Below are positions 10,860 through 63,640 of a stretch of 64,000 nt of DNA, one piece after another. Position numbers and translations under genes: made by a program. Numbering within the stretch: position 1 is the stretch's first letter; each line of letters starts with the position of its first letter. The notes beneath the pieces were generated by a model. The model worked only from the letters and a program-made list of their open reading frames with translations. It made no database searches and was not told the DNA's origin. The DNA is from a virus: the IMG/VR virus record IMGVR_UViG_3300030339_000006; one strand, given 5' to 3'.

Positions 10860-11722
10860 TTGCACAGTCTCGCGAGTAGTTGTTTCTCAGGAAGCGGCAG
10901 GGCTTCTACACCACGCTTCAGATTCATCAGGTCGCCGGAGAGCAATTGGGCCACGTCATCACCGATTGCAGACTGGATAGCCGCAGCGGGCAGGGCCTGT
11001 AGGGACATAGCGGGAACAGTCTTGCTGCCCAGATTCACAGTGATGGAGCGGTCGATCGCTTCTTTGGTGAACCAGAAGGCATCACGGTAGAAGTCGCCAA
11101 GGTATCCAGACTGTTTTTCAAGGTAGAGCACGGCACTGGCCAGGGCACGGTTTTCTTCAACGGTCAGTTCATCCGGGTTAGTAGCGGACAGGATACTGGC
11201 CATCTTCGAGAACCCTTTGTTACCAGTCGTCTTCGCACGGCATTCTACTGCCAGGACAGCCGCTTCTTTGTTCAGCTTTCCGGCACCGGCGTACAGGCGA
11301 ACCAATGGTGACTCAATTTCTTCGGCATAGTTATCATACAGGGCTGCCGCGGTAGAGGCAACCTTCTCGATATCAATCAGGCCGGAGCAACGAGATTCCA
11401 GGATGGCTTCTGCAGTACGCAGCTCGTCGGTCACGCCACGTGCTTCCATGGAGCGGTCGGCAGCGGCTTTCACCAGCGTACCGGTCAGGTCAGAGACCTG
11501 TTGGGTCAGACCGTACAGACGAACAGCTTTGTTCACACGGGCGACGTCATCCATATCAACGACTTGGTGGGCGACCTTCGTGAGGTAAGCGATTTCCAAG
11601 GCAGACGCTACAGTGCTGTCCTTGTCTTTAGTCGGGAAGATCTCTTCCGCGTACGCTCTTTTGATGAAACCGGAAGCGGCAGGTACCAGCTCCAGGACGT
11701 TCTTGATTGCATGTAGTGACAT
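10853..11722 (-). CDS. Putative internal head protein with repeated K-x-A motifs
   Basis: LTKVA, LVKAA, IEKVA, LNKEA, FSKMA, FTKEA. Confidence 0.55.
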   Translation of the reverse strand: MSLHAIKNVLELVPAASGFIKRAYAEEIFPTKDKDSTVASALEIAYLTKVAHQVVDMDDVARVNKAVRLYGLTQQVSDLTGTLVKAAADRSMEARGVTDELRTAEAILESRCSGLIDIEKVASTAAALYDNYAEEIESPLVRLYAGAGKLNKEAAVLAVECRAKTTGNKGFSKMASILSATNPDELTVEENRALASAVLYLEKQSGYLGDFYRDAFWFTKEAIDRSITVNLGSKTVPAMSLQALPAAAIQSAIGDDVAQLLSGDLMNLKRGVEALPLPEKQLLARLCKC

Positions 11723-12642
11723 TAGTGTGTTCCTCGTTTCTCGTTCAGCAGATCACGGGCTAGTTGTGCCAGTTGTGATAAGTTTTCATTGTTGCTTTGA
11801 TGAGCCCCGTTGTTGGCGGAGATCGAATCAATTACGTGTTGGGCTGATTCCGGAGAATACCCAAGGTCTCGATGAGAGTTTAAGAGAATATCCTGCATGG
11901 TCGTGCCGGCTTCCATTGCACCCTCAGTTTTCTTCACGTAATGGTCAAGAGCGTCAGCCTGTACGGGAACGCCAGAACGAATCTTGTTCATCACCCGCTC
12001 AGTGACCCCGTTCGTTGGATCCACTTCCTCGTGAGCGGCATCGTAGTAACCCAGGCGGGCTGCCGGGATCGCTGAGTTCAAACCGATTCCACTGACGACG
12101 TTCGCTACCGGTGCCAGAGAGAATCCTGAACGGGCTACACGGCCACCGACACCACCGAACATTGCGGTAGCCATACCTTCCCCACCTTCTTCGGCGTCAG
12201 CCAGGCCCGAGTACAGAGCGGCGGCGTCACGGCGATCGGCCAGGATATCCAGTGCAGAACGGATCAATCCGCCGGCAGCACCGATCGCCGCACCGGTACC
12301 CACCAGAGCACGGACAGTCTTGTTCCCAGAGAGCGACTTCAGTGCCCCGAGGACACGGCCTTTATTGGCCCCGGAACCGAGTTCAATCCCCAGAGGGATC
12401 AGGGAGGCCAGCGGGATGGTAGCCGCAGCACCACCGATGGTGTTCTTCAGTACGTTACCGGCCATACCGGAGACGGACGGTTTATGATCTTTCATGCGTT
12501 CACGCAGTCCAGCAATCACTTCTTTCTTATCGGCGAGCGGAAGGCTAGCAAACTGGGGATTCGATAGGAGAGAGGTGAACGGCTGGCCAGCTTTGTAAGC
12601 TCGGTGCATACCCCCGATAATTTCACTATTCGTTAATGACAT
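11722..12642 (-). CDS. Putative virion/ejection protein with Gly-rich hydrophobic segments
   Basis: GTGAAIGAAGG-type segments; TAAAAT motif upstream at 12670. Confidence 0.5.
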   Translation of the reverse strand: MSLTNSEIIGGMHRAYKAGQPFTSLLSNPQFASLPLADKKEVIAGLRERMKDHKPSVSGMAGNVLKNTIGGAAATIPLASLIPLGIELGSGANKGRVLGALKSLSGNKTVRALVGTGAAIGAAGGLIRSALDILADRRDAAALYSGLADAEEGGEGMATAMFGGVGGRVARSGFSLAPVANVVSGIGLNSAIPAARLGYYDAAHEEVDPTNGVTERVMNKIRSGVPVQADALDHYVKKTEGAMEAGTTMQDILLNSHRDLGYSPESAQHVIDSISANNGAHQSNNENLSQLAQLARDLLNEKRGTH

Positions 12643-12706
12643 CGCGTTACCTCGTTAGTTGATACTGATATTTTAGCTACAACGCCCTGTAACGTCCAGC
12701 GTCCAG

Positions 12707-12922
12707 AAATGTTACAGACAAAAGTGTTGTAAACCAAGAGTTTAGAGCGTTTTGTGACATTGTTACATGGGAACATGAGAAAGTCACCCTTATTAGAGAC
12801 ATCTTACCCCTATACATACATTACTATGGATTCAAAATAAGGTATATATAGGATGCTACTACCCTCTAGGGGATAAAGGGGGTGTGTGTTTGGAGACGTA
12901 GTTCCTGTCACAATGTCACAAA
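12707..12922. repeat. Non-coding palindromic element, copy 1 (168 bp core 12753-12920)
   Basis: Terminal inverted repeats TTTGTGACATTGTTACA / TGTCACAATGTCACAAA; 47 bp block 12785-12831 identical to 45645-45691. Confidence 0.9.
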
Positions 12923-12943: not shown

Positions 12944-12950
12944 GGTATAA
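12944..12950 (+). promoter_or_regulatory. GGTATAA promoter motif (also at 5530, 15827, 44876, 46575, 55860, 56483, 60478, 63471)
   Basis: Recurs just upstream of plus-strand transcription units. Confidence 0.65.
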
Positions 12951-13035
12951 CTACTTTGAGCAATCATCCCTATGCTAAGTCAATGGGGAACTTAGCAGGG
13001 ATGGGATTACGGGGCTAAATCCCGTTGGAGGTTTC

Positions 13036-13139: not shown

Positions 13140-13586
13140 GTGGAGAAAGTAACCAGCGTATTCAGCTTCCGGCAGATGGGAGACCAGCAGCTCAACCCGT
13201 TCGTTGAGAAGGCTAGTTTCGTCACCCGGGATCTTGAGTACAAGCGTAACTACTTCATCGTGGCAGACCGAGAAGAGGGCATTACGACCTTCGCGTACTG
13301 GCCGGTGAAGTTTGAAGTAAACGGTGACCTACTGCGGTTCCAGAAGTTCCCGGGGATTCTCTCCGACGGATTCCTGGTGCTGCCGAAGAACCGTGTGATT
13401 GAAATCAACATCGACGAACTCTCTCGTGGCAAAGTCCGCCTGGGTGACCGTTCGATCCCCTTCGCTGATTTTGCCCAAGCCAATCAAGGCCTGACTCAGG
13501 TTGTTACTGATGAAGGTATTCTGAACGTGCTCGGCGAAGTCGACGTCTTTACCTATTCCGCTAACCCGCGGGCTCATTGGATTTAA
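13140..13586 (+). CDS. Hypothetical protein
   Basis: GTG start with GGGGA RBS; typical codon usage. Confidence 0.7.
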   Translation: MEKVTSVFSFRQMGDQQLNPFVEKASFVTRDLEYKRNYFIVADREEGITTFAYWPVKFEVNGDLLRFQKFPGILSDGFLVLPKNRVIEINIDELSRGKVRLGDRSIPFADFAQANQGLTQVVTDEGILNVLGEVDVFTYSANPRAHWI

Positions 13587-15429: not shown

Positions 15430-15833
15430 AACTCTACCGCTTCCACCACGGCCTCTTTGGAGAGATTCTCAGCTCGATCCCTCAGGAAGATCTCCTGAAC
15501 CGCCTTCGTCAGCAACCGGACCTGGAGTTCCTCGAGTCGACCACCCTTAAGTTCTCCTCCGGGCTTCAACTGACGATCTCCGACCACGAAGATATCAGCA
15601 AGCCGTCCTGCCAGCTCTGCTCCGACGTCATGACCCTGGTCTACCAGCACTGCTGCTCCGGGACCTACGGTTGGTTCGTCGACCTCTGTCTGGCTCTCGA
15701 GAGTGCAGAGCTGATGGGCTCTCACGCCGAGTTAAGTACGCCGCAGGTCCTTCAATTCCTCGCCCTGGTGGCCACTTTCAGTGACGTGAATTCCACGCCA
15801 GTGCTGCTATATATGACTGATTTACTGGTATAA
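15426..15833 (+). CDS. Hypothetical protein
   Basis: ATGA overlap with the upstream gene. Confidence 0.6.
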   Translation: MKLYRFHHGLFGEILSSIPQEDLLNRLRQQPDLEFLESTTLKFSSGLQLTISDHEDISKPSCQLCSDVMTLVYQHCCSGTYGWFVDLCLALESAELMGSHAELSTPQVLQFLALVATFSDVNSTPVLLYMTDLLV

Positions 15834-15862
15834 GAATAGTACAGATAGATAGGAGCTGTGCT

Positions 15863-18391: not shown

Positions 18392-20506
18392 TTAGATCAC
18401 CAAGTGGATGTTGGTGTAGTTGTTCGGATCGACGATGCTGGTGTTCATGATCAGCTCGATCGTGTCTTTCGACGTAGCGCTCTGAGCCAGGCTCACGATC
18501 GTGTAATCGATCAGTGGAGCACCGATACGCGGCAGCTTCTGGGTCTTCAGGTTCTCCGACGCCGAGATGATAGTCTGGCGGATTACACGCAGAGTATCGT
18601 CGATGATGTTCCAGCTACCGATGAATGGATCGACCAGATCCTTGTAGAAGTAGGACAGGTAGTCCCAGTTCTTCACTTTCAGGATCTCGCGGTATTCCAG
18701 GACGGTCATGTCCGTGGTCAGTTCGTGACGGCAGTACGGCGGAGCCGACTGGTTGTCCTGCACGAAGATACACGTACCGGCAGCCGCCATGGTATCCAGA
18801 TCATCGCTACCGAAGTAGTAGTTGCTGTTCTTCAGCGTTTCGATCCCGGCCACAGTCAGGTTCGTAAAGCCCTGCTGTACTGGGAACCCTGCACCCATCC
18901 CTGCCAGAGCACACGCCAGGAAGTACGAAGGAACGTACTTAACGACGGAGTTCTCGGTCACACCAACCAGGCACGGCATCACGTGTACGACACGGTTGCT
19001 GGCGAAGTTAGAGGAGATCGCAGCGATGTTCTTGGCTTTGCTCGGAGCGTCCAAGTTACGGTAGATCTCGAACTGAGTCACGTTGGTTTCAACTTCAGGG
19101 ATATAACCGGTTTCGCCGGTCAGGCCTGTTTTGACACCCAGCGTGGTGTTGCTGTAGATCGTATCGATCTTGAATGCACCCTCAATGGTCGCATCTTCTG
19201 CGTCGATGATAGAGAGCATGTCGCCAGACTCGATGCCGTCGTTCAGGAAGGTTGCCCCTGGAACGGTCAGGATCATGTTGTGACGGCCAGCAGAGTCACC
19301 GATAGAGCTCTTCGTCAGAGCGTAAGAACCGGTGAAATCACCCAGGTTCAGAACGTCGCTCGGATCAGAAGATACCAGGGCCATACGCCACATGCCTTTC
19401 AACGGATCGGACATCTGAACGGCGTGTGCTTTAAACGCAGTCAGAACGGCCATCTGTGAAGTCAACGGCACCATGTAGTACAGGCGTTCGTTTTCGATCA
19501 GCTGCAGAGCGGCTTGGTAACCGGCCTGAGAATCTTCTTCGATCGCTACCGCACGGACGCTGGTAGTGGTGTTCGCCATCGTGATGCTCACGCCCAGGGC
19601 CAACGGGTTGGTCGTGGTCGGTGAACCCAACTGTGACTTCAGGTCGCCAGCGGTCTGAGTGATCGTCATGATCTCACGAGACTTGTCGATACGCAGAGCA
19701 CGGTAACCGATGTACGACTGAAGGTTTGCACCACCATCCTGAGCCGGTGAACGTAGGGTATACGAACCGTCTTCAAGCGGGGTGTTCAGCAGCTGGTACT
19801 GGTTGCTGATCTTCAGGACTTCCTGGCCCAGGTAAATCTGGGAAACGTCAACGTCGTCCGCGTTTACACGGAAGATATTCACGTCGATGCCGGTGAACAG
19901 GTGGTACACTTCGAATTGAATCGTCTGTGTAGCATCCAGAGCGGCCAGCGAATCGGTCACTGACAGGGTCAGTTTACCGGCAGCCAGGCTCACGGAAGAG
20001 ATCGTAGTTTTCACTACGTGCGTACCGTCACGGGCAATCAGGCTGTCGCCAGAACGAACGTGTGCACCCTTGTCACCCAGAGCCATCAGGGCCAGTGGGT
20101 TTGCGTCTGCGAAACCGAACTTAACGGCAGAGACGTCAACGGTGAACTTCGACGCAGTAGCCGGTTCAGCGAAAGTCAGGGATACTGCTGGGAACGCGTA
20201 GGTACGAACCTTGGCATTCATCAGGTACAGTTTGATTGACTCGTCGTTCACGACCTTCTGACCCGGATAGGTCGTATTGCCGTTGATCGCCAGATCAATC
20301 ATTTTGCGTGCATCGCCAGTTTCAAACCAGTTAGCAACTTCGGTCGCCTTCGAGTTAGCCAGCGTGGTTTCGCTGGTAGGATCGATCGTCACTTCATTGT
20401 AAAGTGGACCGATAATGACCGCTTGGAGATCTGGCGTGACGTTCGCCGCTCCACCAGAGTTTTCCAACTCTTGGTACACCGCGGTACTAGGTTTTCTGTA
20501 AGCCAT
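18392..20506 (-). CDS. Contractile tail sheath protein
   Basis: MAYRKPSTAVYQE start; C-terminal sheath-like ...CRHELTTD...YREILKVKNWDY; 704 aa; precedes the tube. Confidence 0.8.
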   Translation of the reverse strand: MAYRKPSTAVYQELENSGGAANVTPDLQAVIIGPLYNEVTIDPTSETTLANSKATEVANWFETGDARKMIDLAINGNTTYPGQKVVNDESIKLYLMNAKVRTYAFPAVSLTFAEPATASKFTVDVSAVKFGFADANPLALMALGDKGAHVRSGDSLIARDGTHVVKTTISSVSLAAGKLTLSVTDSLAALDATQTIQFEVYHLFTGIDVNIFRVNADDVDVSQIYLGQEVLKISNQYQLLNTPLEDGSYTLRSPAQDGGANLQSYIGYRALRIDKSREIMTITQTAGDLKSQLGSPTTTNPLALGVSITMANTTTSVRAVAIEEDSQAGYQAALQLIENERLYYMVPLTSQMAVLTAFKAHAVQMSDPLKGMWRMALVSSDPSDVLNLGDFTGSYALTKSSIGDSAGRHNMILTVPGATFLNDGIESGDMLSIIDAEDATIEGAFKIDTIYSNTTLGVKTGLTGETGYIPEVETNVTQFEIYRNLDAPSKAKNIAAISSNFASNRVVHVMPCLVGVTENSVVKYVPSYFLACALAGMGAGFPVQQGFTNLTVAGIETLKNSNYYFGSDDLDTMAAAGTCIFVQDNQSAPPYCRHELTTDMTVLEYREILKVKNWDYLSYFYKDLVDPFIGSWNIIDDTLRVIRQTIISASENLKTQKLPRIGAPLIDYTIVSLAQSATSKDTIELIMNTSIVDPNNYTNIHLVI

Positions 20507-21096
20507 TATGCTTGTTCCTCACTGGTTGTTAGGTGTATGTTACCGAGAATCTTCTTCAGAAGAATAGTATCAGGGGTGTAATTCCACCGGTCTTCTACAC
20601 TGTACGGTATCTGTACCTGTATTTTAAATTTCTCTTTGTCTTCCGTGATCGCTTCGCACTCAGAAATTGCAATCTGGTGACCGAAACGCAGGAAGCCAAA
20701 CTCGGATTCGAACATCGGGCGATTGCGTACGACTAACCGGCGGACACCTTCTGCTAACACTTCGCAGGTTCCTTCACGATCAGCCTCGACAATCACCAGG
20801 ATAGAGCTGTTAACGTCCTGACGCATCCCTTTCGTCGGCAACTGTTGTGGACCCTTAACGGATTCCTCGGAGTTGTTGATGAATTGAACCTGCTGTTGCA
20901 AGGCGCCTCTCTGGACGAGGATGCGTGGCATTTTCTGCGTGGCTTCATTACTATTATAATCGTTTGCCGAGGCAATCACGATTTTATTCAGCTTGACGTC
21001 AGCACTCCACGCAAAATCTCCCCCGTACATCAAGAACCACTGACGGACAGAGTCTCGGAACATTGTGACCGCCATCAGCGGCGTGTAGTTGATCAT
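20506..21096 (-). CDS. Putative tail terminator/completion protein
   Basis: MPRILVQRG motif; immediately upstream of the sheath. Confidence 0.55.
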   Translation of the reverse strand: MINYTPLMAVTMFRDSVRQWFLMYGGDFAWSADVKLNKIVIASANDYNSNEATQKMPRILVQRGALQQQVQFINNSEESVKGPQQLPTKGMRQDVNSSILVIVEADREGTCEVLAEGVRRLVVRNRPMFESEFGFLRFGHQIAISECEAITEDKEKFKIQVQIPYSVEDRWNYTPDTILLKKILGNIHLTTSEEQA

Positions 21097-21139
21097 TTAA
21101 AACCCCCAGTTCTCTTCGAAGAAATCGACGTCCTCTGCG

Positions 21140-21253
21140 TTACACACCCCAGTTCTCCTCGAAAACGCCCCAGTCCTCTTCACGGCACTCGTTGCTGCCA
21201 CCGAAAAGTCCCCAGTCTTCCTCTGAGCGGATACCTTCGCCAAATCCTACCAT
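21140..21253 (-). CDS. Acidic EE(D/N)WG-repeat micro-protein (37 aa; apparently frameshifted, full form would end at 21097)
   Basis: RBS GAGG; MVGFGEGIRSEEDWGLFGGSNECREEDWGVFEENWGV*; a fourth repeat follows in another frame. Confidence 0.55.
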   Translation of the reverse strand: MVGFGEGIRSEEDWGLFGGSNECREEDWGVFEENWGV

Positions 21254-41555: not shown

Positions 41556-41604
41556 AGTTGGGTTCTCCGTTAAATATACACTATTTTAGTTAATCACTCG
41601 TATT

Positions 41605-43014
41605 TTAGCTATTCATAGCGTCGAGGATTTCCTTGGTCAGGCTATCTTTGTTGGCTGCCGAGTGGTGCAGGTAGTCATCAATGCCTTGTCCACGAGAGAT
41701 CTTACCGAAGAGCTTGGGTTTGGTTGCGAGATATCTCATCACCCGTACTTTACGCTCTTCCTCAGGCAGGTCTGCGTGGGAACGGTAACGAATGCCACGA
41801 CCGATAACCTGGTTGATCTTCTCGTTGTTAAAGTGAGGCTCCATCCCTTGGAACGAACGGGTGCCCTTTAAATCCAAGCCTTCTGAGCCGGCTGACGACA
41901 GGAGGATCGCTTTGATCTTCCCTTCGTTGTAGTCACTGATAGCCTGCTTACGTTCCGAAGACGTGGTACTGCCGGTAAACATCGCAGCAGAAATCTTTTT
42001 CGCCACCAGTTGTCGGTGGGCCTCTTCCAGGCCGGAGCCCAGGTAGTTAGAGTAGATGATACCCTTGTGATTAGGATTATCCTTCATCATCGTCTCAAAG
42101 TCACTGACTATTCGATCAATCTTTGGCGCCGACGGTTTACGCGTGGTGTATTTAGCGTCGGTGTTACTGATCTGTCGAACGGCCTGAGAGAAGGCGTTCA
42201 GGTTCTGCTGCTCTTTCTTATCCACTGGAAGGTTCATACGGATCTTCAAGCGAAGAGGGAGGGGGATCGTGTCTTCTGCGTACTGGTAAGCCCGCAGCTG
42301 GTCCGGAGACATGTCAACGTGCACCATTTCGTCAGTACGGTCCGGGAAGTCCTGCTTCATTTCCTTCATGGCATCGAAGCGGTCCATGTACTCTTTACCC
42401 AGGCGACGCAGTTCCTTCTTGTTCTTCACAGACAGCTTATCACCGGGTTTCACCCCGAGAATACGCAGGAGTAGGCCTGGCTTGACTTTGTCATGCTGGA
42501 TGAAGGCCTGGTCGAACTTGTCTGGATCTTCCGGCATGACTGACTTGCCGGCCGTCGTGTTGATGACCTTGGCGATGTCAGAACGCTGGTTGTAGATCGG
42601 CGTACCGGTTAACAGCAGGCGTTGCTTGGCGGAACGAGCCAGATCGCGTACGGCGTCGGAGCGAAGCCCCGGGTTACGCACACGGTGGGCTTCATCGAGC
42701 ACCACCAAATGGTAGCCTTTGGCCTTGTAATCCTTCGCTTTTCTCTGAGCACCTTCGTAGGAATCGATGTCGATGTTCGAACGGATGTGCTTAGGGATGT
42801 TGTGCTTGTCCATTTCCTTCTGCATGTTGTCACGCAGCGGAGCCGGAACGATGAACAGGGCACGGGCCCCTGGATTCTTCTCAATGACACCGCGGGCGGA
42901 ATCGAGACTCTCGAGGGTCTTCCCTGACCCAAGAGAATGATAGGCCAGGACAGATTTGCCCGAGCCGATCTTGTCGGATATCCGCTGTTGGTGGTCCTTC
43001 AGCGTGTAATCCAT
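41605..43014 (-). CDS. SNF2-family helicase/ATPase
   Basis: HSLGSGKT, LDEAH, LLTGTP, GSEGLDL, QVIGRGIR. Confidence 0.9.
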   Translation of the reverse strand: MDYTLKDHQQRISDKIGSGKSVLAYHSLGSGKTLESLDSARGVIEKNPGARALFIVPAPLRDNMQKEMDKHNIPKHIRSNIDIDSYEGAQRKAKDYKAKGYHLVVLDEAHRVRNPGLRSDAVRDLARSAKQRLLLTGTPIYNQRSDIAKVINTTAGKSVMPEDPDKFDQAFIQHDKVKPGLLLRILGVKPGDKLSVKNKKELRRLGKEYMDRFDAMKEMKQDFPDRTDEMVHVDMSPDQLRAYQYAEDTIPLPLRLKIRMNLPVDKKEQQNLNAFSQAVRQISNTDAKYTTRKPSAPKIDRIVSDFETMMKDNPNHKGIIYSNYLGSGLEEAHRQLVAKKISAAMFTGSTTSSERKQAISDYNEGKIKAILLSSAGSEGLDLKGTRSFQGMEPHFNNEKINQVIGRGIRYRSHADLPEEERKVRVMRYLATKPKLFGKISRGQGIDDYLHHSAANKDSLTKEILDAMNS

Positions 43015-44834
43015 TAGTAACGACCTCCTTCGCCTTCACCGAACGCACCGCCGAGAATGTACGGGGCAATAGGGTCAGTGCTGCTTGATGGTGATTCCAT
43101 ACCTTCTGCTGCGGCCTCAGTCAGCGTCTTGCCGATCTGTTTGAACGCCAGGCGGGATAGCCAGTTGGTGTCTTTCAACTTCGCTGTCTTAATCCCCGGT
43201 ACCATTGGCTCTACTTCCAAGCCAGAACGAGACGTGTGAACCTCGTCGATACCGTGTTTGCTCAAATACGCCAGGTGGTTGCTGTCCAGGATTGTTCCCG
43301 GGGTCAACTCCAAGACTGGACGAGCCAGTTTCTGTCCGGTAGCACGCTCAATAGGCATGACCTGCGAGTCACGAGCCATTTCGTCGGCAATGTGGTTCAC
43401 GGTCACAACCTGGCCCGGAAGATACGCCGTAGTACCCGGATCCTTCACCTTCACGTATTTGACCAGATTCTTCGCGATCAGATCGAAGTGACGCGGGTCC
43501 AGTCCGCCGCCGTAGATTTCATACAGCTTGTTGGACATGTAGCGACGACCGTCACCGATGCCACGCAGGGCCACCAGCTCACGGGTGTTGATCGTACCGG
43601 TAGACAGAGCCTCACCGGTCTTCACTTTGTCGCCTTCCTTCACTGCCAGATCCTGGGAGTTCGGGATGAAGTACTCTTTGTCACCGACGTGCAGCGTGGT
43701 ATCCCCGAGAGTCGTGGTCTTGATCGTGTGAACAGAACCGTTACCCTCTGCGATGATCGCTTTGTCCTGGAACTTCTGTGGGTTGACCAAGAGGTTAGAC
43801 GTCAAGTCGTACGGGTTGATGGACTTACCGGATTTCGCGTTATGCTTAGTACCCAGAATCATCTGTGTCAACACTTCGGAGGCCGACTGAGCCGCCACGA
43901 CACCGACGTTCTCTCCGATATCCGGGATGTGACCGTTGGCATTCAGACCGTAACACTTCTTACACACGCCTTCTTTGGCCTGGCAGGTCAGCGTATTGCG
44001 GACTTTGATACTCTTCACGCCGTCGTGTTGCAACTGGCGGTAGTAAGCTTCGTCGATCAGGTGGTTTGTGCCGGCAGTGAAGTGGAAGATTACCTTCTTC
44101 TTATCCGTCGGATCCATCTTCTCGACCAGGCCATTCGTCGTGCCACAGTCGTCTTCCGTGATTACTTCGTGGTACAGGTTCGGAGTGATCGATTTGAACA
44201 TGTCGCCAGGCTTGGAGGTAGACAACTGAGCTCCCACGGTGTTACCGCGTCCCCAGTATGACATGGCCAAGTGTTCGGCGGGACTCAGACCTTCGGCGAA
44301 GGAGTGCATGATCGCCAGTGGGATCGGTGAGCCATCGATCTTCTTTGACTGAATCGGTGAGCTGGTAGCCTGTTGGAGCTGATCCGGGTTACCACGAGCA
44401 CCGGTCTGAGCCATCATAGCCGCCGTCGACTTGCGGGCCACCATGTAGTTCAGGTTCTGGTCGGTCAGCAAGCGTTGATACTTGGTTGACACGTCCAGCA
44501 GTTTTTCACGGCGTTCACGCTCGGAGAGACCCTTCTCGTCGTTCACGTGGTTAGTTGCCGCTTCGTATTCTTTGAGCATGGCATCACGTTCGTCTGAGTC
44601 GTTGTAGTAGTCAGAGAGTGGGGTGGAGTAGCCGTGATCGGTTGCTGTGTGGAAAAACAGGTGTGACAGATTCGAGATCGTGTCAGCTGCTTGATCTCCA
44701 CCGTGGGTAATGACGTTAGCAATCAAATCCTTAACGCCGTTCTTGTTCAGCACTGTGTGCGGGTCGAAGTGCTTCTGTGCTGCTTCCGGTAGCATGCTCT
44801 TAATCTTCAGAGCGCCGGGGGTAATGATTGTCAT
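43014..44834 (-). CDS. rpoC: RNA polymerase beta' subunit, C-terminal half
   Basis: MMAQTGARGN, SFAEGL, bridge helix, ITEDDCGT, TC...GVCKKCYG, trigger loop GENVGVVAAQSASEVLTQMILGTKH. Confidence 0.9.
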   Translation of the reverse strand: MTIITPGALKIKSMLPEAAQKHFDPHTVLNKNGVKDLIANVITHGGDQAADTISNLSHLFFHTATDHGYSTPLSDYYNDSDERDAMLKEYEAATNHVNDEKGLSERERREKLLDVSTKYQRLLTDQNLNYMVARKSTAAMMAQTGARGNPDQLQQATSSPIQSKKIDGSPIPLAIMHSFAEGLSPAEHLAMSYWGRGNTVGAQLSTSKPGDMFKSITPNLYHEVITEDDCGTTNGLVEKMDPTDKKKVIFHFTAGTNHLIDEAYYRQLQHDGVKSIKVRNTLTCQAKEGVCKKCYGLNANGHIPDIGENVGVVAAQSASEVLTQMILGTKHNAKSGKSINPYDLTSNLLVNPQKFQDKAIIAEGNGSVHTIKTTTLGDTTLHVGDKEYFIPNSQDLAVKEGDKVKTGEALSTGTINTRELVALRGIGDGRRYMSNKLYEIYGGGLDPRHFDLIAKNLVKYVKVKDPGTTAYLPGQVVTVNHIADEMARDSQVMPIERATGQKLARPVLELTPGTILDSNHLAYLSKHGIDEVHTSRSGLEVEPMVPGIKTAKLKDTNWLSRLAFKQIGKTLTEAAAEGMESPSSSTDPIAPYILGGAFGEGEGGRY

Positions 44835-44906
44835 GGAGACCTCCGTTTAGTTGATCAACTAGACCTATTTTACAGGGTATAAGTACTGTAGTGAATAGGA
44901 GAGTCT

Positions 44907-45508: not shown

Positions 45509-45529
45509 GGACCCTTACGGGTCCTTTTT
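45509..45529 (+). terminator. Rho-independent terminator
   Basis: GGACCC-TTAC-GGGTCC-TTTTT. Confidence 0.8.
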
Positions 45530-45566
45530 AGCTGCTGTGACATCGAAAGTCAGGGTCCTGTTCCCA

Positions 45567-45781
45567 AAATGTTCCAAAGAAAACCCAGATAGGACAAGGG
45601 CTTAGACGATTCTGTGACATTGTTACATCGGAACGTCTCCAACCCACCCTTATTAGAGACATCTTACCCCTATACATACATTACTATGGATCTTTAAATA
45701 GGTATATATAGGATACTACCTACTCTATGGGGATAAAGGGGGTGTGTGTTTAGGGGTGTTGTTCCTGTAACGGTGTCACAG
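45567..45781. repeat. Non-coding palindromic element, copy 2 (168 bp core 45613-45780)
   Basis: Direct repeat of copy 1 at offset 32,860; arms CTGTGACATTGTTACA / TGTAACGGTGTCACAG. Confidence 0.9.
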
Positions 45782-46545: not shown

Positions 46546-46623
46546 AGTGTTCCTCCATTCAGCTCATATTTTAGGGTATAAGCAAGGTGTAGTAGAAACC
46601 ATTGTACCCCAAAGGAGGTGCCT

Positions 46624-54116: not shown

Positions 54117-55800
54117 CTTGTTCTCCTTGTTGTGCCGGTGGCAGGTTTTCGATGATGTTCATAACGCTCTGATACATCGTCTGGTCTTTCGCCTGTAGAG
54201 CCAACAGAGCTTGCTGCTGAGCTTCTGGAGGAGTCTGCAGAATCTTCGCAGCTTCGTCATAGGCTTCTTTACGGTTGTCAGCGAATCCTGAGCTGTCTTT
54301 ATCAGACGCCAGGCCTTTGGATTTCGCGAAGATTGCTTTCTCGACGAGGTCTTTCGTTTCGACCTGGCTTTCAGCAGAGGAGACGGTATCGTTCATCATC
54401 TTCTCGAGTTCTTCATCATAATCCATTCCGAACGCTTCTAACAGGGTAGATGCAGACAAAATGTTAGATTTCCACATGTCCATCATGGACGCTTTCAGTG
54501 CTTCGTTATCCGTAAGTTTAAACGGCACGAGCTTCACTTCGGCAATCTCCAGAGACAGATATGACGCGATCTTCTCCATGATCCATTCGATCATATCCTT
54601 GAGCTGGCCCACGTAGTTGTTCATCGTGTTTTCCAGCAGACGCAGACCGATGGTTGAAGACGTCCAGTTAGTCGTACCAGACAGCAGTTCACGGGATACC
54701 CCCATGGACATCAGCTGTTGCTCTTCAGCGTACTGCAACTCTTGGGAGACCAACAGGGAACGTCCCTGGCCACCGATTTGCTGCGAACCGATCGGGATCG
54801 GAGAGATCAGCACGTGGTTCGGGTCCGACTTCATCTGACGGATTGTCCCCTTCATGTGCTTCGCGAAACCACGCAGTGACATCTGGGCCACCGGGTCGGC
54901 GTTCGCTGAGTTCTGCTGCGGGAAGATAACACGCAACGGAACCATGTGTTCTGCCGCCACTGCTTCGTTAGCCTTGCGGAGCATTGCCTGGTAGAACACC
55001 AGACCGTAGTGAGAGATCAACGGTGGGATGCCCAGCCCATCAATCATGTTACCCATCGAAATGGACTTCATGTGGTAGATGTTGGTGTCATCGAACAGGT
55101 AATCTTTACCAAAGCGTACGGCTTCAACCATAGACCACGGCACGGTAGACAGGAACAGTGGGTCGCCCATCATGATCTTCTTCTTCACGTCGCCAGGAAT
55201 CTGATAGTAGAACTCGGATTCTCCGGTCACCGGGTTGTGGTTCAGAGAGACGTTCTCTGGTTTCCACTTGATCAGGTTGATGCGAGACACGTCACGGGAC
55301 TTAGTGTCGACCAATTTGTAGTTCACGATGTTGTGACAGTTCGGGCATTCCCCGACGAATTGCCATTTCTTGAACGCTGCGAAGCCAGAACGCATGGCAG
55401 TCTTCACTTCGTAGGACGAGCGGCAGTTCGGGCAGTGCACGTGGCGGTCAATCGGGAAGTAGATCGACGTGTAAACGTTACCGAGCGTGTAGTAATCGAA
55501 ACCGGCGTCACAGAGCTTCTCTTTGAACTTGATGCTCTTGAAGATCTGCTTGTACGTCTCGATGGTTTTCTCGTTCTTGGAGTCCGTCAGGAACTCAGTG
55601 ATCGGGTAAGAGGAAAGCTTACGGATCACTTCGGTGGTAGTCGGCGCCTGGGTAGTGATGTAGCGGGACCACTTGATAATGTCATGAAAGCTACGCGGGA
55701 TGAACTGGTTCGCTTGCGTAAAGAAAGGACTCGGCAGTTGGCCGACCTCGTAGCTGTCATACATTCCACTCGGGGTGGGGTTAAGTCCGAACATTGACAT
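54088..55800 (-). CDS. Portal protein (putative) with Zn-ribbon insertion
   Basis: DYYTLGNVY, IYHMK...GLGIPPL, MGVSRELL.G portal-like pattern; CPNC...CPNC insert. Confidence 0.7.
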   Translation of the reverse strand: MSMFGLNPTPSGMYDSYEVGQLPSPFFTQANQFIPRSFHDIIKWSRYITTQAPTTTEVIRKLSSYPITEFLTDSKNEKTIETYKQIFKSIKFKEKLCDAGFDYYTLGNVYTSIYFPIDRHVHCPNCRSSYEVKTAMRSGFAAFKKWQFVGECPNCHNIVNYKLVDTKSRDVSRINLIKWKPENVSLNHNPVTGESEFYYQIPGDVKKKIMMGDPLFLSTVPWSMVEAVRFGKDYLFDDTNIYHMKSISMGNMIDGLGIPPLISHYGLVFYQAMLRKANEAVAAEHMVPLRVIFPQQNSANADPVAQMSLRGFAKHMKGTIRQMKSDPNHVLISPIPIGSQQIGGQGRSLLVSQELQYAEEQQLMSMGVSRELLSGTTNWTSSTIGLRLLENTMNNYVGQLKDMIEWIMEKIASYLSLEIAEVKLVPFKLTDNEALKASMMDMWKSNILSASTLLEAFGMDYDEELEKMMNDTVSSAESQVETKDLVEKAIFAKSKGLASDKDSSGFADNRKEAYDEAAKILQTPPEAQQQALLALQAKDQTMYQSVMNIIENLPPAQQGEQDGQESAGTK

Positions 55801-55896
55801 GATTAGTCCTCGTTAGTTGTTCTAAGATTTTAGACGATCCAATTCTCAGGAACCGGCCTGGTATAAGTATTGTGTAAACCACATAGGAGATAGTTT

Positions 55897-56468: not shown

Positions 56469-56540
56469 CAGAAAACCGTAATGGTATAAGAAGGTTGTAG
56501 AAAGAGATTAGATTAACCATAACCCCATAAGGAAAGTAAC

Positions 56541-58603: not shown

Positions 58604-60484
58604 ATGAAACTTATCTTAACTCCCGACGGACAGAACGTTGAGTTCGTCCCGGAGAGCAATGCGGAAGAGACCATCATCACGATGTTCCCCGCCCTCTACA
58701 AGGTCCGAGGCAAACGCTTCGCCCCAAGTCTACCCCATATTTTACAGAATATCATCGAGCGTTTGAAGAAAACCCTCAAGACGCCAATCACGACGGCGGA
58801 CAAACGCATCGTTGATCTGCTAAAGAACGAAGTGACGCTCCGAGAGATTCCGGAAGAGTTCAACTTTATCACAGATCCGATGAAGCACCAACGTATCGTT
58901 CTACAGTATCTGCTGACCAACGGCGGCGGCGGCGTGCTGCTCGATCCCGGCCTGGGCAAGACGAAGATCATCCTGGATTTCATCAAGCTGATGAAGTTCA
59001 AGAAGAGCCTGATCGTGTGCCCGGTAGCCCTGCTCGATGTGTGGGTCGATGAGACCGGTACGCACCGTCCGGACCTGAAGACGTACGTGCTGCAGTCCAC
59101 CAGCTGGCCGACACTGTTCAAAGCCGCTAAGACCCGGGTTGAGAAGCACTCCGCGGCACTGGCAGAGGAAGAAGAGGGATCGGACGAGTACAAGAAGATT
59201 CGCACCAAGCTTCGAGCGGCAGAACGGGAAGTGAAGTTCATCCCGGCGGCCATGGCGGAAGACCTGGAGTTGGCCGCTGCGGCCGACGTGGTAGTCATCA
59301 ACTACGACAAAGCCAGCAACTACGACTACTTGATGAAGCACTTCGAGTTTGACTTCATTGCCCTCGACGAAGCGCTCATCAAGACGCACAACTCGACCCG
59401 CACGCTGTCCCTCTTGAAGATCGGGTCGAAGATCCCTTACCGCGTCATCATGTCCGGCACGCTGATCAACAACACGGCTCTCGATGCCTTCGCACCGATC
59501 CGTTTTCTTCAGCCGGCCCTCACCGGTATGGCCTACGGGAAGTTCGATCAGCATTACGGCATCAAGATCAAACCCCGGGGTAAGTCCTTTGAGGTCACGA
59601 TCGGCGTCAGTAAGAAGAACGTGCAGGAGATCCGCGGTATCCTCGAGGCCTGTTCGATCGTCATGCGTAAAGAAGACTGGTTGGATCTCCCACCGAAGCA
59701 CTTCCACCGCGTTGACGTTCCACTGACCGAAGCACAGAAGAGAATGTACTCCGGGTTGGTCAGTAACTACGCCTACGAGTTGCCGAACGGGGAAATGGTC
59801 TCAGTCGATAACGGTCTGGGTATGCTGGCCAAAGTCCAACAGATCGCCAGCGGGTTCCTGTACTACAAGGAAGAGTCCGACGATTACTACGATATCCTCT
59901 TTGGGAACGATCAGAAGGAGTCTCCTCGCCAGACATATCTGTTCGAAGAGAACCCGAAGCTCGATGCCCTGTTTGAGCTCCTCAATGGCCCCCTGGTTGG
60001 ACGCAAGGGTATCTTGTGGTACAACTGCGAGGCAGAGTACGAGCTCATCACAGCGGCCTTCAGAGAGCGTTCTGTGACCCATCGGGTTATCAAAGGCGGG
60101 ACGAAGGGGACGGGTGCGATTATCCGTGAGTTCAACAACGATCCGAGCATTTCGTGGCTGGTCTGTCAGGCCAAGTCGGTGAACTACGGGATTACCGTCC
60201 TCGGGGCGAACCCGGAGAACCTCGATCGGGCCCAGGAGATCCTTCCTGAGGTCTCGACCCGGGTGTTCACCCACGTGTTCTACTCGTTGAACTACTCGCT
60301 GGAAGTCTACCTGCAGCAGCAAGACCGTTCCCACCGAATCGGTCAGACGATGCCGGTCGACTATTACGTCCTTCTGGGTGACTGTGAAGCCGAAGAACAA
60401 GTCTATAACGCCCTGCAAAACAAGATGGTAATCCGAGAATCGACCCTGGTAGACTTTTCCAGAAGGCTCAAACCACTGGTATAA
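58604..60484 (+). CDS. SNF2-family helicase
   Basis: DPGLGKT, LIVCP, LDEAL, MSGT, QQQDRSHRIGQ. Confidence 0.9.
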   Translation: MKLILTPDGQNVEFVPESNAEETIITMFPALYKVRGKRFAPSLPHILQNIIERLKKTLKTPITTADKRIVDLLKNEVTLREIPEEFNFITDPMKHQRIVLQYLLTNGGGGVLLDPGLGKTKIILDFIKLMKFKKSLIVCPVALLDVWVDETGTHRPDLKTYVLQSTSWPTLFKAAKTRVEKHSAALAEEEEGSDEYKKIRTKLRAAEREVKFIPAAMAEDLELAAAADVVVINYDKASNYDYLMKHFEFDFIALDEALIKTHNSTRTLSLLKIGSKIPYRVIMSGTLINNTALDAFAPIRFLQPALTGMAYGKFDQHYGIKIKPRGKSFEVTIGVSKKNVQEIRGILEACSIVMRKEDWLDLPPKHFHRVDVPLTEAQKRMYSGLVSNYAYELPNGEMVSVDNGLGMLAKVQQIASGFLYYKEESDDYYDILFGNDQKESPRQTYLFEENPKLDALFELLNGPLVGRKGILWYNCEAEYELITAAFRERSVTHRVIKGGTKGTGAIIREFNNDPSISWLVCQAKSVNYGITVLGANPENLDRAQEILPEVSTRVFTHVFYSLNYSLEVYLQQQDRSHRIGQTMPVDYYVLLGDCEAEEQVYNALQNKMVIRESTLVDFSRRLKPLV

Positions 60485-60514
60485 GAAAAGTGTGTAAAAC
60501 AGCCAGAGGTCACT

Positions 60515-63264: not shown

Positions 63265-63477
63265 ATGATCAAGATTGAAGCAGTACAGCGAGATAACGGC
63301 GTGGTCGCCCTTATCCTCAACAGCAATGACCCCGATCGAGACCGTGACCAAATGGACCTGATCGGTGCAACCATCGTGACACCGTCCGAGCGCCGTGGCC
63401 GTTACACCATGCAGGGTTCTGGTCGCACCATTGAGATTCTCTTCCAGGAACCTCAAAACCGTAAATCTGGGGTATAA
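63265..63477 (+). CDS. Hypothetical protein
   Basis: RBS GAGG before MIKIEAV. Confidence 0.6.
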   Translation: MIKIEAVQRDNGVVALILNSNDPDRDRDQMDLIGATIVTPSERRGRYTMQGSGRTIEILFQEPQNRKSGV

Positions 63478-63640
63478 CAACTATGGAGAAATCTGGACGC
63501 ATCGTTCTGACTCCGGAAGACCTTGCCGAATTTCGAAAAGGCTTGGTATCAGAACGTATTCAGACAACTTGGGGCTTGACATTCGCCGAGCTTTCAGAGA
63601 TAATTGCATCTCAAAACACAAACTCTAACGGAGAATCCGA

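Follow-up and report, generated by a model that had tools for sequence, protein, structure and literature searches.

Evenly spaced, five-copy palindromic repeats as candidate replication origins of an Arash-like phage

Our analysis of a 176,021-bp IMG/VR virus record (G000), related to Salmonella phage Arash, reveals five copies of a quasi-palindromic intergenic element in which arrays of short inverted boxes flank an AT-rich centre. Judging from sequence, we propose, with a probability of about 0.6, that the five copies are multiple replication origins of this Arash-like phage, equivalent to one another and each consisting of iterons plus an unwinding element. The proposal draws on the anatomy of the element, its copy number, spacing and synteny, the conservation of its architecture, the signs of concerted evolution among its copies, the low duplex stability of its centre, and the modelled fold class of a phage-encoded helicase. 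The DNA presented here (the window, 64,000 nucleotides) is the minus strand of G000:C1:91480-155479. The ends of the whole record overlap by 126 bp, and the genome therefore maps as a circle of 175,894 bp.

The window contains two of the copies, which are direct repeats at a constant offset of 32,860 bp (Table 1). Copies 1 and 2 are 81.5% identical over the 168-bp core and 76.4% identical over positions 12707-12922, whereas the flanks, compared at the same offset, are 26-29% identical, confirming the duplication described in an earlier note on this DNA. The two copies share identical runs of 16 bp (12753-12768), 47 bp (12785-12831), 15 bp (12840-12854), 23 bp (12869-12891), and 8 bp (12901-12908); the 47-bp and 23-bp runs are as the earlier note gave them, while the block that it gave as 14 bp is one base longer.

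The element spans ~170-215 bp and comprises two to three 7-bp boxes (TGTNACA, with a period of 8) on the left and one to two boxes, in inverted orientation, on the right. Specifically, copies 1, 4, and 5 have TGTNACA pairs on both sides, copy 2 has one perfect and one degenerate box on its right side, and copy 3 lacks the outer right box and so has a single right box. An inner inverted pair (CCTATACATAC / GTATATATAGG) is present between the arms, and a weaker segment (ATGTTACA / ATGTTCCA) ~46 bp upstream of the element carries a further box, TGTTACA or TGTTCCA. The inverted TGTNACA arms, the inner pair, the AT-rich centre, and the upstream segment had all been noticed previously, and all are found. 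The outer-left flank of copy 2 is common to copy 5. It had also been claimed that differences between the arms preserve pairing. This holds for the outer arm ends, which are T..A in copies 1 and 4 and C..G in copies 2 and 5, but these ends are the sole such paired change, and the claim does not extend to the five copies, across which the variable inner segments lose complementarity.

Table 1. Positions of the element, its parts, and neighbouring genes and signals in the window
Feature	Position	Strand	Description
Gene flanking copy 1	11722-12642	-	Homologue of Arash structural protein gp241; defines the copy 1 slot
Late-type promoter-like site	12670-12698	-	With CTAAAATA; outside the element; would serve the divergent structural gene 11722-12642
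Copy 1, outer-left box	12710-12716	.	TGTTACA; copies 2-5 have degenerate TGTTCCA
Copy 1, core	12753-12920	.	168-bp quasi-palindrome; 80-92% identity with the four other copies
Copy 1, left arm	12753-12774	.	TGTGACA-T-TGTTACA (12753-12767) and GGAAC (12770-12774)
Copy 1, AT-rich centre	12810-12852	.	TATATATAG (12843-12851) and its imperfect mirror CTATACATAC (12810-12819)
Copy 1, right arm	12901-12920	.	GTTCC (12901-12905) and TGTCACA-A-TGTCACA (12906-12920); inverted relative to the left arm
Promoter core	12944-12951	+	GGTATAAC; 24 nt right of the copy 1 arm, facing away toward gene 13176-13586
Early/middle motif sites	15826-15847, 46574-46595, 56482-56503, 60477-60498, 63470-63491		
(C/T)TAAAATA sites	12670-12690, 41560-41600, 44840-44880, 46550-46590, 55800-55860	-	
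Gene flanking copy 2	43014-44834	-	RNA polymerase beta'-C chain (Arash gp216); defines the copy 2 slot
Terminator	45509-45529	+	Hairpin and T-run immediately before copy 2; counterparts also lie ahead of copies 3 and 5
Copy 2, outer-left boxes	45536-45576	.	TGTGACA (45536-45542), TGTTCC (45558-45563), TGTTCCA (45570-45576)
Copy 2, core	45613-45780	.	Left boxes 45613-45627, GGAAC 45630-45634, centre 45670-45712
Copy 2, right side	45761-45765, 45766-45772, 45774-45780	.	GTTCC, degenerate box TGTAACG, and TGTCACA, respectively

A whole-genome search revealed five copies of the element, all in one orientation. The earlier note had recognised two of these five. The copies start near 12.7, 45.6, 80.8, 115.7, and 155.2 kb (in window-oriented coordinates), and are separated on the circular map by 32.9, 35.2, 34.9, 39.5, and 33.4 kb, an evenness that five random points on a circle would attain by chance with P ~5e-5. 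All five copies are intergenic, in differing settings. The genes on either side of copy 1 are divergent; those around copy 2 are convergent, and this copy has a terminator on one side and the 3' end of a minus-strand gene on the other; copies 3-5 are embedded in long plus-strand gene arrays.

The boxes are concentrated in the element. The genome contains 31 occurrences of TGTNACA, 21 of which are within the five elements (0.09 expected there). Boxes are ~80-fold enriched in the elements, and all eight tandem TGTNACANTGTNACA box pairs in the genome fall within elements. The box counts and the restriction of the tandem pairs therefore place the repeat far beyond chance. Outside the elements, TGTNACA is under-represented (10 observed versus 24-37 expected), which suggests that the box is avoided where binding would be harmful. 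Ranked against all 64 palindromes of the form NNN-N-NNN, TGTNACA outside the five elements is the fourth most depleted.

The centre of the element is exceptionally easy to melt as judged from nearest-neighbour energies: when the 176-kb genome is ranked by 30-80-bp windows, the element centres fall among the five to seven with the lowest stability. The same calculation places the centres as the five least stable in Arash and within the seven least stable in Vibrio phage D148. TATATA hexamers follow the same pattern, with 10 of 14 inside elements here and 20 of 21 in Arash, such that nearly every TATATA hexamer in these genomes of ~52% G+C falls in an element centre. TATATATAG, or a close variant, is present at the centre in all relatives examined, and a degenerate promoter-like AGGTATATA is located within the centre.

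To compare relatives, we used the RNA polymerase beta'-C chain as an anchor and took nine complete IMG/VR genomes and Vibrio phage D148. Salmonella phage Arash (OQ632216, 180.8 kb), the one close relative in culture, contains five ~210-bp repeats, at 26.6, 66.4, 100.1, 138.5, and 173.3 kb; their mutual identity over the 220 bp surrounding the centre is 83-92%. The Arash repeats are not alignable by BLAST to the present element, yet they occupy the same five gene slots. BLAST of the element against Arash and relatives with 65-76% RNA polymerase identity gave no element-to-element match, and gave weak matches to the centre in G001 only. Four further genomes (G001, G002, G003, and G005) have five copies each in the same five slots, and the slots are syntenic in six genomes that share 46-87% mean protein identity. 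More distant relatives have elements of 300-650 bp in other slots, with three copies in G006, four in G007, two in G008, three in G009, four in G010, and three in D148. A check for further copies in this genome and in relatives had been suggested in the earlier note; the outcome is five copies here and two to five in related phages.

The relatives share a plan rather than a sequence. In particular, inverted box arrays flank a TATATATAG-type centre in 11 relatives, and the sequence of the box is specific to the lineage: TGTNACA in the present genome, TGTAACC in Arash and G003, GATACG / GGTACG in G001 and G002, TGTGTCG in G005, TGTAGCA in G006, TGTAACA in G007, GTTCCGA in G008, TGTCTA in G009 (~18 per element), TGTCCA in G010, and TGTTGCA in D148. 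In G005, G006, and G007, a single copy has the opposite orientation to the rest, indicating that strand orientation is not essential. Even spacing recurs in the other slots. The two copies of G008 are 98.5 and 93.9 kb apart, almost diametrically opposite; the three copies of D148 are spaced by 57.6, 61.2, and 68.7 kb; and spacing is over-dispersed in each of six distant relatives. With the syntenic five-copy group counted as a single observation, the Fisher combined P for evenness is 1.9e-8, and it is 1.2e-5 without the five-copy clade. Two other searches were uninformative or empty: the 14-base arm pattern gave >100 unrelated chance matches in IMG/VR, and a search for related loci with the flanking structural protein alone returned nothing.

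Sequence comparison of the copies indicates that they evolve in concert. Copies within a genome are 79-90% identical, exceeding the 75-78% identity of same-slot copies in sister genomes, which is approximately equal to that of other-slot pairs, and copy 5 is a mosaic, with its left part from copy 2 and its right part from copy 1. The higher identity of paralogues and the mosaic structure together point to concerted evolution.

Several properties of the database records touch on the repeats. In many relatives, the contig carrying the RNA polymerase gene is 32-38 kb long, which equals the distance between repeats; evidently, the repeats interrupt short-read assemblies of Arash-like phages. The record ends of G000, G001, and G008 fall inside an element copy. 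G003 (IMG/VR 2084038018_000001) has a 515-bp exact terminal repeat (1-515 and 182098-182612) that is not at an element and that may be a real terminal redundancy, unlike the end overlaps of other records, which are assembler overlaps of 127-143 bp. Within 66238-66938, 100204-100371, and 138717-139073 of the Arash record, ORFs gp115c, gp116c, and gp171c overlap repeat copies, and gp214c starts at the end of one copy; these annotated hypothetical ORFs are probably over-calls. D148 (OZ196545) contains a second, unrelated repeat family of ~150-200 bp (141862-142060, 145742-145889, and 187332-187525) close to a homing-endonuclease gene interrupting the RNA polymerase beta gene.

The phage encodes a candidate initiator for such an element. 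Pfam annotation of its replication cluster identifies a ligase, RNase H, a two-part family-A polymerase, and a Toprim primase protein of 963 aa, whose Arash counterpart is gp183c. A model of the C-terminal 430 aa of the 963-aa protein, built on ten orthologues, has a pLDDT of 68.6. Foldseek matches this C-terminal half to SCCmec Cch (5dgk, E 2.4e-5) and SaPIbov1 Rep (8tch, E 7e-4), at TM scores of only 0.3-0.4, and further fold matches include PriRep1 (7pds), poxvirus MPXV E5, and ASFV PrimPol helicases. The model suggests a primase joined to a helicase with a fold similar to that of the initiators Cch and SaPI Rep, which belong to a class of helicases that recognise their own origin and load onto it unaided. 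The last 100 aa are modelled as winged-helix-like, with matches that include the C-terminal domain of SaPIbov1 Rep (Z 4.5), within a range of Z 4.5-5.7 that is too low to exclude a common arrangement. The predicted recognition helix, GHAKSTIRTA, is nearly identical across lineages with wholly different boxes, and for this reason we do not claim the winged helix as the reader of the box. The box reader may be another part of the 963-aa protein, of which residues 120-200 and the last 80 residues are the most divergent, or it may be another protein. A screen for proteins that diverge in step with box type returned only small unannotatable proteins. The best-placed outlier in the screen is a 149-aa protein beside the primase-helicase, a homologue of Arash gp181c, with no Pfam, PHROG, or PDB match and a poor Atlas model. 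The primase-helicase gene (71.9-74.8 kb in rotated coordinates) is ~6 kb from the nearest element, copy 3, in the present genome; in G006, G007, D148, and G010, one copy is ~0.6-3 kb from it. The phage also encodes a PD-(D/E)XK nuclease and several helicases.

Three options had been put forward in the earlier note: a multi-copy replication origin, a structured non-coding RNA, and a MITE-like or recombination element. The first fits as a candidate, matching the inverted iteron-like boxes around a meltable centre, the five even copies, the conserved architecture, and the Cch/SaPI-Rep-like primase-helicase; the RNA option gained no support and the MITE option is rejected, as set out below. We infer box binding, centre melting, helicase loading, and origin firing, in a sequence of steps as follows. 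A phage-encoded, sequence-specific initiator would dock on the inverted box arrays; the most likely initiator is the 963-aa Toprim-primase/Cch-SaPI-Rep-like helicase, acting alone or with a separate box reader. The centre would then open, and two helicase rings would load facing apart, such that forks would depart both ways. Five equally spaced origins would cut the time needed to copy a large genome, and the copies would be kept alike by inter-copy recombination and by the need to suit one initiator.

Strand composition shows no asymmetry of a replication type. Raw cumulative GC and AT skew give no consistent signal at the elements, the GC skew having no sawtooth, and regression of third-codon-position skew on gene strand and side of the nearest element (12 genomes, with rotation controls) gave small coefficients of inconsistent sign. 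The missing skew signal is uninformative: it neither supports nor excludes phage origins.

A broader proposal, to which we give even odds, is that widespread 150-190-kb phages with their own RNA polymerase use two to five sequence-identical, equally spaced origins, which would be homogenised by gene conversion and would co-evolve with the fused primase/Cch-Rep-type helicase. Selection would act on copy number and spacing, given that distant lineages use new slots and still space them evenly.

The alternative that survives best, though we consider it unlikely, is that the element is a transcription-control module, namely an operator array, an enhancer like a baculovirus hr, or a centre acting as a weak divergent promoter pair. 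A DNA-binding phage protein on the box arrays would then switch adjacent early and late promoters. The phage encodes its own RNA polymerase and sigma factors, the elements are at transcription-unit boundaries (with terminators just upstream of copies 2, 3, and 5), and the centre has AGGTATATATAGG and its mirror, which resemble the TGGTATAAG promoter core. The genome has two classes of promoter against which these features can be judged. The early/middle motif is TGGTATAAG(t)AAgGTGTAAacc, the core of which, GGTATAA, has 40 plus-strand occurrences and a single minus-strand one, and almost every site precedes a plus-strand gene start by 30-60 nt; in form it looks like an extended -10 promoter (TGnTATAAg). 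The late-type CTAAAATA motif is located upstream of minus-strand structural genes. Copies 1, 3, and 5, and likewise three of the Arash copies, have an early-type GGTATAAC promoter 20-30 nt to the right of the arm, but these promoters are outside the right arm, are directed away from the element, and are missing at copies 2 and 4. Inside the element, a scan for sigma-70-type promoters and terminators found none, and the genome's two promoter classes have no complete site there; a check for R-loop-type features found only the degenerate AGGTATATA in the centre. Copy 2, moreover, lies between convergent genes, ~40 ordinary early promoters function without an element, and a gene switch provides no rationale for two to five near-equally spaced copies in slots that vary between lineages.

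Two other sequence features were noted in this survey of signals. The motif (C/T)TAAAATA is present 20-40 nt before the ribosome sites of minus-strand structural, terminase, and RNA-polymerase genes, and is a candidate for a late promoter used by the phage-encoded polymerase. At 21097-21179, the 164-bp spacer ahead of gene 20506-21096 of the structural cluster contains a 43-bp unit (TTA.A.CCCCAGTTCTC.TCGAAGA...) twice in tandem.

A chromosome-handling site, which we judge slightly less probable again than transcription control, could work in one of two ways: a protein of condensation, partition, or packaging would dock on it, or it would be a hotspot, prone to cruciforms, at which cutting initiates recombination-dependent replication. 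Arrays of protein sites that are dispersed, even, and symmetric would be in keeping with loop anchors or centromere-like sites too; a DNA hairpin can be formed by the entire element (z = -3.1); the phage encodes the PD-(D/E)XK nuclease and several helicases; and the mosaic copies show that recombination occurs in the elements. However, a (TA)n centre with minimal stability, found universally and bracketed by inverted arrays, typifies an unwinding element and not a partition or pac site; no ParA/ParB or protelomerase gene was found in the Arash annotation; and origins served by the helicase class to which the phage protein is matched share the iteron/AT-centre layout.

A structured non-coding RNA gene, with the inverted arms as a long stem, is very improbable. 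The strand does fold better than shuffles, and one outer-arm position is changed on both sides (T-A versus C-G), but any DNA palindrome folds well as RNA. The covariation analysis proposed in the earlier note gave an alifold covariation term of +0.48, with one of 45 pairs compensatory and a consensus fold that pairs only the palindromic arms; in addition, copy 3 has no outer right box and the variable inner segments do not keep their complementarity. A scan of Rfam (E up to 10) gave only two chance-level matches, both outside the element, the sigma-70-type scan found no promoter or terminator of its own, and copies in G005, G006, and G007 are inverted relative to surrounding genes. Least probable is a MITE-like or other selfish mobile repeat, which would account for a non-coding repeat with terminal inverted arms of 20 bp and several copies at dispersed sites, but which is excluded by five slots conserved among six genomes at only 46-87% mean protein identity and by the absence of target-site duplications at the element ends, and is further opposed by a copy number fixed at five in those genomes, a spacing too even for random insertion, and the absence of a transposase gene in the Arash annotation.

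To our knowledge, the origins of large lytic phages are mostly unknown. Those that are known, as in T4, are heterogeneous and hard to predict. In the literature searched, we found no description of the element repeats and no phage described as having several identical, evenly spaced origins; the paper on Arash does not mention repeats or origins (PMC10585845). A single recognisable module now marks candidate origins in hundreds of mostly uncultured phages, and the culture of Arash on Salmonella Typhimurium makes direct testing possible. If the copies are origins, phages can use several identical, optimally spaced origins, an arrangement otherwise known from eukaryotic viruses and cellular chromosomes, and the module would be a simple, sequence-defined prokaryotic-virus counterpart of the multi-origin genomes of herpesviruses and baculoviruses. 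It would also provide a rule by which origins can be located in phage genomes from metagenomes, account for the breakage of Arash-like phage assemblies into ~35-kb contigs, and offer a compact origin-plus-initiator pair for work on self-loading helicases.

The candidate origins can be compared with five known systems. SaPI Reps are self-loading initiator helicases in which a C-terminal winged helix reads iterons, and a SaPI ori has 6-12 iterons around a central AT-rich region, at least two per side and in opposite orientation, with two hexamers thought to load, one per side (PMC9371898). The present element is similar to a SaPI ori in having short inverted iterons on both sides of an AT-rich centre (PMC9371898). 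SaPI Rep and PriRep (PDB 8tch, 7pds) are AAA+ helicases that end in a winged-helix-like domain and that, as in PriRep5, can be fused to a primase; the phage 963-aa protein gives matches to these folds, at low TM scores; in SaPIs, as in the present phages, specificity differs between lineages. Differences include the number and placement of origins (one SaPI ori directly downstream of rep, versus five candidates here, 33-39 kb apart and none abutting the gene), the Toprim-type primase part of the 963-aa protein, and the genome itself, a 176-kb lytic-type myovirus rather than a satellite.

In the alpha protein of satellite phage P4, a Toprim-type primase is joined to a P-loop helicase and to a DNA-binding C-terminal domain; this domain recognises 8-bp repeats (TGTTCACC), which are present in direct and inverted orientation at two separate loci, ori and crr. 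P4 differs in having one ori and one crr on an 11.6-kb genome, and no sequence match of the 963-aa protein to P4 alpha was obtained. The HSV origins, oriS and oriL, are related palindromic multi-copy origins with an (AT)n centre and inverted boxes for an origin-binding helicase. The likeness lies in several palindromic copies per genome, each with an AT centre between inverted boxes; however, UL9 is an SF2 helicase of a eukaryotic virus, the copies are three and unevenly placed, and there is no sequence relationship.

The baculovirus hrs are near-identical, AT-rich, imperfect palindromic repeats dispersed on a large circular genome, and are candidate origins. Like the present element, they are non-coding, homogenised within a genome, and divergent between species; unlike it, they are tandem 30-bp palindromes that are bound by IE-1 and also serve as enhancers, in insect viruses with other replication machinery. 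T4 (~170 kb) uses at least five origins early in infection, of which oriF and oriG consist of a promoter and an A+T-rich unwinding element (PMC3016281). The number and scale are similar, with five origins on ~170 kb in T4 (PMC3016281) and five candidates on 176 kb here. However, the T4 origins have little shared sequence and no iterons, and use R-loops from MotA-dependent promoters, whereas the present element is five copies of one module, with inverted box arrays and no full promoter. By analogy, the candidate origins would resemble a SaPI or HSV oriS origin in mode of action and the baculovirus hrs in distribution.
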